From: Escherichia coli
GTDB lineage: Bacteria > Pseudomonadota > Gammaproteobacteria > Enterobacterales > Enterobacteriaceae
DNA: 64,000 nucleotides
Direction: 5' to 3' (one strand)
Assembly (NCBI RefSeq): GCF_013315695.1
Contig: NZ_CP054353.1
Part shown: positions 23,123 to 29,282 of the stretch, in pieces
How positions within the stretch are numbered: the stretch's first letter is position 1
How the letters are laid out: each line of letters starts with the position of its first letter
The notes under the pieces: generated by a model
What the model saw: only the letters and a program-made list of their open reading frames with translations
Database searches by the model: none
What the model was told of the DNA's origin: nothing
Program-made: the position numbers and the translations under genes

Positions 23123-23198
<76 letters not shown>

Positions 23199-23237: not shown

Positions 23238-23313
<76 letters not shown>

Positions 23314-24326: not shown

Positions 24327-25535
24327 TCAGGCTGTCACCTGAATCATTTCGGTGGGTTCCTGCTTCAACGAGCGGCCTGACTGCACCATCTCTCCACAGG
24401 CAAGAACGGCGTGCCCCGCCGCTAAAATGTTACGAGCGCCATTTACATCAGCGTTCGCTGTATATCCACATGCCTGGCATCTGAATTTACTTTGTGACAG
24501 GCGATTTTCTTTCGCTGTATGACCACAGCACGCGCAACGCTGGCTTGTGTACGCTGGCGGAACAGCAAGCACCTGACCGCCACGCCAGAGCTGCTTGTAC
24601 TCAAGCTGGCGGCGCATTTCATACCAGCCCTGATCCAGTATCGAACGGTTTAAACCTGATTTTGCCCGGACATTGCGCCCCGGCTGGCTGACCGTACCCG
24701 CTGCTGACTTTGACATGTTGCTGACCTTCAAATCCTCAATGACTATCATTGCGTGGTTTTTGCTGACGGTCGTTGTGACTTTGTGAAGGTAGTCCCTGCG
24801 GATATTTGCGATACGGGAATGCAGTCGCTGTATTTTGCGTTTCTGCTTCTGCCAGTTATTGCTGAATTCGACCTTGCGGCTTAACTGTCGCTGAAGTCTC
24901 GCCAGCGTCTTCTGGTTTTTCTGAAAACTGTTTACAGGCTCAAAGACTGTGCCATCTGACAGCGTGGCGAGTTTAGCCACGCCAGCATCCAGCCCGACCA
25001 TTGATGCTGAAGGGTGAACCGGAGTGGATACTTCACTTTCTGTCTGAATACTGATGTACCACTTACCGCAGGACTGGCTGACAGTGACATTTTTCACAAC
25101 ACCCGTGACCTGACGGCTGTTCCGGTAGCGCATCCAGCCAAGTTTCGGCAGAAAAATACGGCTGTTTTCCTGATCGAGCTTAACGCCCTGCGGGTAGCGG
25201 AATGCATCATTCTGTCCCCGCTTTTTGAATCGGGGAAAAGCAGCCCGCTTCTGGAAGAAGTTTTTGTAAGCCCGCTCAAGGTCTTTCAGTGACTGTTGCA
25301 ATGGCTGTGAGGGCGAATCTTTAAGCCATTGCATTTCAGTGGCGTTTTTCCACTCAACCAGCCAGGAAGCCATTTTCCCGTAAGGGATGTATTTATTACC
25401 GGCCTCATGATTCTCATTCTGAAGCGCCAGAGCACGATTGAAAACGAAACGACATGCGCCTGCGAAGCGCCTCATTTCACACTCCTGTTGACCACCTGGT
25501 CTTAACTGGAATTTAAATGCCTGTAATCGTTTCAC
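24327..25535 (-). CDS. tnpB: TnpB (OrfB) RNA-guided endonuclease of IS200/IS605 family, 402 aa
   Basis: Conserved N-terminus ([10 protein letters not shown]...[13 protein letters not shown]), RuvC-I VGLDAGV, Ruv[12 protein letters not shown], zinc finger CACCGH...CQACGY, Ruv[17 protein letters not shown] start at 25535 has no SD, internal ATG at 25475 has strong AGGAG and would give 382 aa. Confidence 0.85.
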
Positions 25536-25542
25536 AGGTCAA

Positions 25543-26030
25543 ATGATACTTTGGTCTGTGAAAAAAGAAACCGATATCCGGCGTGGAAGGCATTGTGTTT
25601 TCCTGATGCATGTTCACCTGGTCTTTGTCCCAAATACCGACGCCAGATTTTTGACCATGACGCGACAGAAAAACTACGCACTTACTATTCAAATGTATGT
25701 GCTGATTTTGAAGCTGAACTGGTTGAAATGGATGGCGAACCAGATCACGTCCATTTGTTAATTAACTATCCTCCCAAACTGGCGATATCCAGTCTGGTAA
25801 ACAGCCTCAAAGGCGTATCGGGTAGGTGACTGCGACGAGATCGACCAGATATTGCAGTCAGGTATTACTACAAAGGCGTTTTGTGGAGTCCTGGCTATTT
25901 TGCCAGTAGCTGCGGAGGTGCGCCAATATCCGTCATCCGCCAATACATTGAACAACAGCAAACACCTGGTCAGGTGGAAAACCGCGCCTTATATCCCCGC
26001 CCTGAAGGACGGGGTTTTACGGCGCACCGG
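25543..26030 (+). pseudogene. tnpA: tnpA (IS200/IS605 Y1 HUH transposase), disrupted
   Basis: TnpA-like sequence is split: ...HCVFLMHVHLVFVP in one frame, KYRRQIF...DHVHLLINYPPK...SLKGVSGR in another (about 1-nt loss near 25628-25631), then an in-frame TGA at 25827-25829, then ...WSPGYFASSCGGAPISVIRQYIEQQ. Confidence 0.65.
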
Positions 26031-26084: not shown

Positions 26085-27500
26085 TTACTGCTGATTTTCG
26101 CGTTCAGCAATAAAAGCCAGCGCTTTGTTGATACGCTCGATACTGCGGGTCTTACCGATTGCGTGAACGGTAACATCCAGCGCTGGAGACTGCCCCGCAC
26201 CGGTTACGGCGACACGCAGCGGCATACCAACTTTACCCATACCCACTTCCAGCTCATCCGCCGTCGCCTGAATAGCGTGATGAACGTTTTCAGCGGTCCA
26301 GTCAGTAATCGCAGTCAGTTTGTCACGAACCACTTCCAGCGGCTGACGCGCTACCGGACGCAGATGTTTTTTCGCGGCGTCGGCATCGAACTCAGCAAAA
26401 TCTTCGTAGAAATAACGGCAGCTCTGTGCCATCTCTTTCAGCGTCTTGCAGCGTTCGCCCAGCAGTTTCACCAGATCAGCCAGCTGCGGGCCGTTACGGG
26501 TATCGATATTTTCCTGCTCAATGTGCCACTGTAAGTGAGTAGCAACATACTCCGGCGGCAGCGCGTTAATGTAGTGATGGTTCAGCCACAGCAGCTTGTC
26601 GGTGTTGAACGCACTGGCAGATTTGCTGACGGCATTCAGAGTGAAGTATTTGATCATCTCTTCACGAGTGAAGATTTCCTGATCGCCGTGGGACCAGCCC
26701 AGACGCACCAGATAGTTCAGCAGTGCTTCTGGCAGATAACCATCATCACGATACTGCATTACGCTGACCGCCCCGTGACGTTTGGACAGTTTTTTACCGT
26801 CATCGCCGTTGATCATAGAAACGTGCGCGTAAACCGGTACCGGCGCTTTCAGGGCTTTAAGAATGTTGATCTGGCGCGGCGTGTTGTTGATATGGTCTTC
26901 GCCACGGATAACATGGGTGATTTCCATATCCCAGTCATCAACAACCACACAGAAGTTATAGGTTGGGGAACCATCGGTACGGCGAATGATCAGATCATCC
27001 AGCTCCTGGTTGCTGAACTCAATCGGGCCACGGATCTGATCGTCAAAAACAACAGAACCTTCCTGCGGGTTAGCAAAACGTACAACGCACGGTTCATCAT
27101 CAGCATGATGCTCATGGCTGTGGCGGCAGCGACCGTCATAACGCGGCTTCTCACCTTTCGCCATTTGCTCTTCGCGCAGCGCTTCCAGGCGCTCTTTAGA
27201 GCAATAGCATTTATAAGCTGTGCCCTCTTCCAGCATCTGATCGATCACCGCGTTGTAGCGATCAAAACGTTTGGTCTGGTAGTACGGACCTTCATCCCAC
27301 TCCAGGCTCAGCCAGTTCATGCCATCCATAATGGCTTCGATAGCTTCCGGCGTGGAACGCTCAAGATCGGTGTCTTCAATACGCAGCACGAACTCACCGC
27401 CGTGGTTACGTGCAAAAAGCCAGGAGTAAAGAGCAGTACGCGCGCCGCCAACGTGCAGATAGCCTGTTGGGCTTGGCGCGAAGCGAGTTTTGATTTTCAT
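26085..27500 (-). CDS. gltX: glutamate--tRNA ligase, 471 aa
   Basis: Class I aaRS with HVGG-type motif ([18 protein letters not shown]) and KLSKR (KMSKS-type) motif. Confidence 0.95.
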
Positions 27501-27713: not shown

Positions 27714-27741
27714 TTGACTCATTTTGAACTCTCCCTATAAT
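27714..27741 (+). promoter_or_regulatory. sigma70 promoter of the tRNA-Val/Lys operon
   Basis: TTGACT (27714-27719), 16-bp spacer, TATAAT (27736-27741), GC-rich discriminator, AT-rich UP-like region upstream; about 18 bp before the first tRNA. Confidence 0.65.
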
Positions 27742-27759
27742 GCGACTCCACACAGCGGG

Positions 27760-27835
27760 GGGTGATTAGCTCAGCTGGGAGAGCACCTCCCTTACAAGGA
27801 GGGGGTCGGCGGTTCGATCCCGTCATCACCCACCA
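27760..27835 (+). tRNA. valU: tRNA-Val (anticodon UAC)
   Basis: 76 nt GGGUGAUUAGCUCAGCUGGGAGAGCACCUCCCUUACAAGGAGGGGGUCGGCGGUUCGAUCCCGUCAUCACCCACCA; anticodon loop CUUACAA; encoded CCA. Confidence 0.92.
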
Positions 27836-27879
27836 ACTACTTTATGTAGTCTCCGCCGTGTAGCAAGAAATTGAGAAGT

Positions 27880-27955
27880 GGGTGATTAGCTCAGCTGGGA
27901 GAGCACCTCCCTTACAAGGAGGGGGTCGGCGGTTCGATCCCGTCATCACCCACCA
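27880..27955 (+). tRNA. valY: tRNA-Val (anticodon UAC), identical second copy
   Basis: Exact duplicate of the previous tRNA after a 44-bp spacer; which K-12 paralog name applies is uncertain. Confidence 0.9.
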
Positions 27956-27959
27956 CTTC

Positions 27960-28035
27960 GGGTCGTTAGCTCAGTTGGTAGAGCAGTTGACTTTTAATCA
28001 ATTGGTCGCAGGTTCGAATCCTGCACGACCCACCA
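27960..28035 (+). tRNA. lysV: tRNA-Lys (anticodon UUU)
   Basis: 76 nt GGGUCGUUAGCUCAGUUGGUAGAGCAGUUGACUUUUAAUCAAUUGGUCGCAGGUUCGAAUCCUGCACGACCCACCA, 4 bp after the preceding tRNA-Val. Confidence 0.92.
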
Positions 28036-28042
28036 ATGTAAA

Positions 28043-28066
28043 AAAGCGCCCTAAAGGCGATTTTTT
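28043..28066 (+). terminator. terminator of the tRNA operon (short stem plus T-run)
   Basis: CGCC-CTAAA-GGCG short hairpin followed by ATTTTTTG right after lysV. Confidence 0.4.
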
Positions 28067-28145
28067 GCTATCTGCAATTTGCGAAATTGCCTGATGCGCT
28101 TCGCTTATCAGACCAACTATGTCCGGCAGTTCCCGTGCCTCTCAT

Positions 28146-29030
28146 CTACTGCGCCAACGCCGCCAGCAGTTTAACCAGCGCGGGCGTCACCTGCTGCGTT
28201 TCATAAACAATATATAAGTCTGCCGGGATGCGTTCTTTGAGCGGACGGAATATGACACCTGGCCAGTTCATCTGCGCGTAACTGTCCGCTATCAATGTGA
28301 TACCAATACCCATACTGACCATGGCGAGTACCGTTTGCGGTTCATTAACTTCGCAAATAACAACCGGTGAAAATCCCACCTGCTGGCAAACTCGCTGCAA
28401 AAAATCCCAGTCAGTGTACACGGGCGGCATTGTAACGAAATACTCGTCACGTAGCGCTTCCAGCGGGACGGTGGAAAATGATGAGAGATGATGCTCTTCA
28501 GGCATCGCCACCACAAACGCCGATTCATGCAACCGTAAGCTGGTAAAACCAGTCGGTGGTTCTGTCGCCATTCGCCAGATCCCGGCATCAAGTTCGCGGC
28601 GTTCCAGCAAGGCCATTTGCATCGCGGGCATCTTTTCGCGAAACAGAACTTCAACGTTAGGATTTTCTCTAAGGAATCGCCGCATAACCGGGCGCATCCG
28701 TCCCCACATTGCCGTTCCCACAACCCCGAGTTCAATCCGCCCTGCTTCTCCCCGACCTATTTGTTCAACCCGAGCCAATACATTATTTGCATTCACCAGC
28801 AATCGACGCGATTCTTCCATCAAGATTTTGCCCGCGTGTGTCAGTACGACGCTGCGCGAATGGCGAATAAAAAGCTGCGTGCCGAGTTGATTTTCCAGCT
28901 CTTTAATATGAATACTGAGCGGAGGCTGAGACATATTTAAACGCGCTGCTGCGCGACCAAAATGCAACTCTTCCGCTACGGCAAGAAAATAACGGAGCAA
29001 CTTAAGATCTGTTCTATATACGCGTTCCAT
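28146..29030 (-). CDS. xapR: LysR-type transcriptional activator of the xanthosine operon, 294 aa
   Basis: ORF 28146-29045; chose ATG at 29030 (MERVYRTDLKLL); N-terminal LysR HTH. Confidence 0.85.
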   Translation of the reverse strand: MERVYRTDLKLLRYFLAVAEELHFGRAAARLNMSQPPLSIHIKELENQLGTQLFIRHSRSVVLTHAGKILMEESRRLLVNANNVLARVEQIGRGEAGRIELGVVGTAMWGRMRPVMRRFLRENPNVEVLFREKMPAMQMALLERRELDAGIWRMATEPPTGFTSLRLHESAFVVAMPEEHHLSSFSTVPLEALRDEYFVTMPPVYTDWDFLQRVCQQVGFSPVVICEVNEPQTVLAMVSMGIGITLIADSYAQMNWPGVIFRPLKERIPADLYIVYETQQVTPALVKLLAALAQ

Positions 29031-29282
29031 AATTAAGTGCTCCATATAAAAAAATATATCGTATTAAATTATCATGGCATAAAGTATTTCACCACCAGAT
29101 ATCCGACATACATAAACACGATGGATAATATACCCGGCAATACATTTGGAACAGGAATAGGTAATCGCACGATTGTAAACAAAGCACCAATGCCAAAACC
29201 AACGCCAGAAGAAAATAAAATATCTTTCACTAATTAACCTTTATCATAAAAGCAGCCCCAAGGAACAGAGCTGCGAATCCTT

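Follow-up and report, generated by a model that had tools for sequence, protein, structure and literature searches.

A valU operon allele of Escherichia coli with two tRNA-Val(UAC) genes, probably derived from a three-gene array by a 122-bp deletion

In Escherichia coli K-12 MG1655, the valU operon consists of three tRNA-Val(UAC) genes followed by one tRNA-Lys(UUU) gene, arranged as valU, a 44-bp spacer, valX, a 46-bp spacer, valY, a 4-bp spacer and lysV (b2401-b2404). The valY-lysV spacer has been described as CUUC for K-12, and maturation of the precursor begins with removal of the terminator by RNase P, which then frees the tRNAs in the 3'-to-5' direction (PMC4176162). Salmonella Typhimurium also carries valU-valX-valY-lysV (PMC5400242). 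The recombination described for metT/metU is of the same class as the change studied here, with tandem identical tRNA genes changing in copy number by unequal recombination (PMC5400242). Repeat-driven change in tRNA gene copy number is also described in two reports on Pseudomonas fluorescens (PMC7661048, PMC10954465). Those cases involve large-scale duplications obtained under laboratory selection, whereas the present case concerns a unit of about 120 bp within one operon. A literature search for valX/valY deletions found no specific published description.

We analysed a 64,000-nt stretch of an E. coli genome (contig NZ_CP054353.1; hereafter the window), in which a shorter array was found (Table 1). 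The preliminary description of this DNA had reported two identical 76-nt tRNA-Val(UAC) genes 44 bp apart and a tRNA-Lys(UUU) gene 4 bp further on, downstream of a near-consensus promoter, TTGACT-16-TATAAT. ARAGORN, Rfam and the sequence itself all agreed with this gene arrangement. The scores against Rfam RF00005 were 65.9 bits for each Val gene and 79.2 bits for the Lys gene, compared with a gathering score of 29. The promoter was also found as described, with 11 of the 12 sigma-70 consensus positions matched, and its activity is predicted from these hexamers. The two Val genes matched one another, and K-12 valU, valX and valY, at 76 of 76 positions. Back-calculation from the K-12 transcript, predicted to be ~438 nt long (PMC4176162), would place the transcription start at A27750.

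Table 1. Features of the valU operon region in the window
Feature	Position	Strand	Evidence or remark
gltX	26085-27500	-	divergent from the operon; 259 bp upstream of tRNA-Val copy 1
-35 hexamer TTGACT, valU operon promoter	27714-27719	+	identical in K-12, SaT040 and GF131
-10 hexamer TATAAT	27736-27741	+	16-nt spacer after the -35 hexamer; followed by the GC-rich stretch GCGACTCC
tRNA-Val(UAC) copy 1, valU orthologue	27760-27835	+	ARAGORN (tac), Rfam; 76/76 vs K-12 valU
sp1, 44-bp spacer	27836-27879	+	same as the K-12 valU-valX spacer; small inverted repeat ACTAC...GTAGT inside
84-bp segment, GAAGT + Val + CTT	27875-27958	+	occurs twice in K-12; the deletion junction falls somewhere within it and is not placeable more finely
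tRNA-Val(UAC) copy 2, equivalent to valX and valY fused	27880-27955	+	ARAGORN (tac), Rfam, K-12 alignment
Val-Lys junction CTTC, 4 nt	27956-27959	+	
tRNA-Lys(UUU), lysV orthologue	27960-28035	+	ARAGORN (ttt), Rfam; identical to K-12 lysV in alignment
Predicted Rho-independent terminator: A-run, GCGCC-CTAAA-GGCGA, T-run	28040-28066	+	hairpin prediction (detected on the - strand)
LysR-type regulator gene, corresponding to xapR	28146-29045	-	downstream of the operon

The locus is an allele of the valU operon and not a separate locus. As in K-12, it lies divergent from gltX and next to xapR, and it has the same promoter hexamers, the same tRNA sequences and the same 44-bp first spacer. The order of tRNA-Val(UAC), CTTC and tRNA-Lys(UUU) was also preserved, and the operon ends in a homologous terminator with a weakened hairpin. 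The difference lies within the array. The K-12 operon has three Val genes separated by the 44-bp spacer (sp1) and the 46-bp valX-valY spacer (sp2), whereas the window has two Val genes and sp1 only.

Three valine copies (valU, valX and valY) had been supposed for K-12 in the preliminary description, which had further proposed recombination between direct repeats as the cause of the shorter array. MG1655 does have three copies, not two. In a three-way alignment, the window and the ST131 strain SaT040 were each short of exactly 122 bp relative to K-12, comprising one Val gene and the 46-bp sp2 (CTTTCTCGCCAGCTAAATTTCTTG). In K-12, the valX and valY units share an 84-bp perfect direct repeat, which consists of the 76-nt Val gene with the 5 nt before it (GAAGT) and the 3 nt after it (CTT). 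The missing segment corresponds to exactly one repeat period, and it is bounded in K-12 by these perfect repeats, so the window form is the product expected of an exchange between them. The clean loss of 122 bp would most likely have come about between the identical repeats of valX and valY, either by unequal homologous recombination or by slippage during replication. RecA-dependent exchange and slippage would give the same product, because the deletion leaves no scar. The unit length and the 84-bp repeat support the proposed cause, and the recurrent events and reciprocal expansions described below are also as expected of deletion between direct repeats. Overall, it is highly probable that the window carries a valU operon allele without one of three ancestral Val genes, after a clean 122-bp deletion that probably arose by recombination or slippage and was probably nearly neutral.

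It had been asked whether this strain had lost a repeat unit or had never gained it. We searched one genome of each species for the exact Val-CTTC-Lys junction, which gave 68 Enterobacteriaceae loci; none from E. albertii, E. fergusonii or S. enterica subsp. enterica was among those returned. Among the approximately 53 complete loci linked to gltX, about 42 had three Val genes, five had two, a few had one, and that of Intestinirhabdus alba had five (the counts for two loci, L036 and L041, are ARAGORN values of three each). Spacers orthologous to both sp1 and sp2 were found in Escherichia species, Salmonella, Citrobacter, Klebsiella, Raoultella, Kluyvera, Pseudocitrobacter and Kosakonia. Since gltX-linked three-copy arrays with orthologous spacers span the Enterobacteriaceae, three copies are ancestral and the window carries a derived deletion; the unit was lost. 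The opposite polarity, in which two copies were ancestral and K-12-like strains acquired a third by duplication, draws some support from the four- and five-copy arrays, which indicate that duplications do happen at this locus. However, sp2 is no copy of sp1 and so could not have been created by a recent duplication, about 90% of E. coli genomes have three copies, and the three-copy array with both orthologous spacers recurs in the genera listed above and in others. On this comparison of sequences, we regard the two-copy ancestor as effectively refuted and give it next to no credence.

The outgroup arrays also displayed features of their own. E. coli, Kluyvera and Pseudocitrobacter share the 44-nt sp1 without any difference, and only slight differences separate it from that of Salmonella, Citrobacter and Klebsiella. 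Its inverted repeat ACTAC...GTAGT was kept in Intestinirhabdus even with a different loop. This conservation of a spacer between tRNA genes was unexpected, and it suggests that the spacer may have a role in processing or structure. In the five-copy array of I. alba (locus L044), the spacers followed the order sp1, sp2, sp1, sp2, corresponding to a duplicated two-unit block. In Franconibacter helveticus (locus L052), the order of the spacers was reversed, with sp2 preceding sp1. As judged from their spacer orders, these two arrays indicate that unequal exchange has taken place repeatedly in other genera as well.

To count copies within the species, 5,426 complete E. coli genomes were searched with queries specific to the spacers and junctions. 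A whole-locus BLAST search was unreadable as copy number, because the best place in a three-copy genome covered either gltX-valU-valX or valX-valY-lysV, each of which reads as two tRNA-Val genes. The diagnostic queries were counted as BLAST places at 80% coverage; the two-copy counts are accurate to a few genomes, with about 5 to 6 per class unaccounted for. With these queries, sp2 was detected in 5,182 genomes and was absent in 244, while sp1 was detected in 5,261 and absent in 165. The junction typical of the window, sp1-Val-CTTC-Lys, occurred in 213 genomes, or about 4%. The other two-copy form, in which sp2 is kept (leader-Val-sp2), occurred in 133, and the single-copy form (leader-Val-CTTC-Lys) in 26. 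These diagnostic counts were mutually consistent to about 5 to 6 genomes. There were also extra places for the spacers, about 72 for sp1 and about 75 for sp2, suggesting that roughly 150 genomes may carry four or five Val copies. The one genome of this kind that was checked, NR3736, had four Val genes with spacers of 44, 44 and 46 bp. Overall, about 90% of E. coli genomes had three copies, about 6.4% had two, 0.5% had one and about 3% had four or more, so that the products of reciprocal gain and loss are both present in E. coli populations, and about 10% of genomes have deviant counts.

The variant in the window is thus an ordinary tRNA copy-number polymorphism that is already catalogued, being annotated in 213 RefSeq genomes. 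The two-copy RefSeq alleles of SaT040, APEC IMT5155, O103:H2 12009 and GF131 have the same arrangement of Val, 44 bp, Val, 4 bp and Lys, and PGAP annotates two tRNA-Val genes in them. They depart from the window only in point differences within the flanks; the highest overall match is 99.0% over 7 kb.

The form seen in the window was not restricted to one lineage. It was found in unrelated backgrounds, including the ST131 strains SaT040 and 4224, APEC IMT5155, O103:H2 12009, O157:H7 FRIK944 and UMNF18. Within ST131, SaT040 had two copies and JJ1887 had three, although 1,720 nt of flanking sequence showed 0 mismatches between them. The laboratory strain J53 is derived from K-12; in more than 15 assemblies of it or of its transconjugants, the two-copy form of the sp2 type was found, compared with three copies in MG1655. 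The difference within the ST131 clone and that between J53 and MG1655 imply that such deletions are real, heritable and recent.

The seven closest relatives of the window (GF131, 1517k, P19_598, KOr019, "20", FHI_NMBU_03 and Q5) all had two copies and were colinear with it across the array. They come from different projects and share with the window a rare IS200/IS605 insertion beside gltX. On these grounds we read the allele of the window as inherited, although shared descent of the deletion in this group would look the same as independent events, because the deletion leaves no scar. The two-copy allele has persisted across 8 or more genomes with 1 to 2% divergence at the locus. A best match of only 99.0% over 7 kb could have pointed to a species other than E. 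coli, but the differences between the window and GF131 were mostly substitutions clustered in two short stretches, a pattern consistent with a less-sampled E. coli lineage. Of the 69 differences, 26 fell within 28000-28500, a region that covers the lysV-xapR intergenic segment and the 3' end of xapR, and these included four indel positions. The clustering suggests a possible recombination patch or local hypervariability.

Tandem repeats can also be shortened by the assembler, and the preliminary description had cautioned against assembly collapse. This caution is justified in general. The O157:H7 strain Xuzhou21 has one Val gene in the older assembly NC_017906.1 and three in the newer CP173109.1, with identical flanks, which is a documented collapse of a tandem tRNA repeat in a "complete" genome. 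Similar artefacts may account for part of the 213, 133 and 26 genomes with deviant counts. For the window, an artefact would mean that the strain really has three copies and that the assembler collapsed the repeat and dropped the sp2 unit. A difference of 1 nt in the length of a G-run beside the array, seen in the window alone, could hint at an imperfect consensus. However, the same two-copy structure was seen in single colinear alignments in seven of the seven closest relatives, all from independent projects. Moreover, sp1 and sp2 differ in sequence, so that the array can be resolved by any read of more than about 100 nt, and the repeated finding of the other two-copy form among J53 assemblies argues that such deletions are real genotypes. 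Given that all seven closest relatives are also two-copy, the caution probably does not apply here, and we consider a collapse in the window very improbable. At the level of the species, counts at this locus range from 1 to about 5 among E. coli genomes, vary within clones and are partly assembly artefacts. With recurrence within clones and some artefacts, the valU array is unfit as a lineage marker and should not be trusted without read support.

Turning back to the deletion allele, the strong promoter would drive a single polycistronic precursor of about 317 nt, compared with about 438 nt in K-12. This size was obtained by subtracting 122 nt from the K-12 value (PMC4176162) and adding 1 nt for an extra G in the leader. 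From each transcript, cleavage by RNase P would then release one tRNA-Lys and two tRNA-Val. Apart from that G, no change was seen in the promoter, the leader, sp1, the CTTC junction or either tRNA sequence, and processing should therefore be normal. Deletion of the whole valUXY-lysV unit is tolerated in MG1655 and is absent from the tRNA deletions reported as growth-defective (PMC11480407). Because the whole unit can be deleted, the loss of one tRNA-Val(UAC) gene is probably nearly neutral. The biological weight of the change is correspondingly small: one redundant gene fewer, in an operon that is wholly deletable in K-12 without a reported growth defect.

Selection for the two-copy allele might also be considered, with the dosage of tRNA-Val(UAC) tuned to codon usage or growth strategy; this would be compatible with the recombination mechanism. 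The allele persists in the group of related genomes described above, copy-number changes are frequent in both directions, and valY/lysV figured in an evolution experiment among the regions whose mutation histories were biased, although not significantly so after correction (PMC10195153). On the other hand, the scatter of the allele over unrelated clones, laboratory strains among them, is what high mutational input and not selection would produce, and deletion of the whole operon has little reported effect on growth. An adaptive deletion is therefore improbable, and near neutrality is the reading that we prefer. The family-wide retention of three copies nevertheless suggests some weak purifying selection. 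A more speculative picture, to which we attach a small but somewhat larger probability, is that the valU array is a small, hypermutable locus whose copy number purifying selection keeps at three across the Enterobacteriaceae, with two copies stably fixed in some lineages, including that of the window. If true, the supply of tRNA-Val(UAC) would be tuned differently from lineage to lineage. The long retention of three copies and the conserved spacers hint at mild selection on the structure of the array, which would pose a modest question in population genetics.

Several smaller differences from K-12 were noted around the array. In the leader (27755-27762), the G-run directly 5' of Val copy 1 had one G more than in K-12, SaT040 and GF131. 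Either the leader truly varies at the RNase P site or the length of the homopolymer is in error. In the stem of the lysV terminator, GGCGC was replaced by GGCGA, a C-to-A change that leaves G28046 and A28060 mismatched. The predicted hairpin energy was -12.4 kcal/mol in the window, compared with -19 to -21 kcal/mol in K-12 and GF131 and -16.7 kcal/mol in SaT040, which has a T at the changed position. Downstream of lysV, K-12 and many other strains have an element of about 156 bp before xapR, annotated by PGAP as "RtT sRNA", after which the lysV 3' end and terminator are repeated. It lies at about 1860-2015 in the K-12 locus (L001), and the corresponding empty site in the window is at about 28067-28094. 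The element was missing in the window, SaT040 and GF131, and it represents a second structural polymorphism at the locus.

On the other side of the operon, the IS200/IS605 insertion sits just past the 3' end of gltX. It contains an intact gene for a 402-aa TnpB/InsQ protein (24327-25535, - strand), with Pfam OrfB_IS605, Cas12f1-like TNB and HTH domains, beside a degenerate tnpA remnant at about 25540-26000. Only 7 of the 5,426 complete E. coli genomes were colinear with the window in this region, and the copy in GF131 is annotated as frameshifted. Further along, ARAGORN identified two tandem tRNA-Ala(GGC) genes on the - strand (23123-23198 and 23238-23313). These are presumably alaX and alaW, which we take to be present in two copies in K-12 as well, with no apparent change in copy number.
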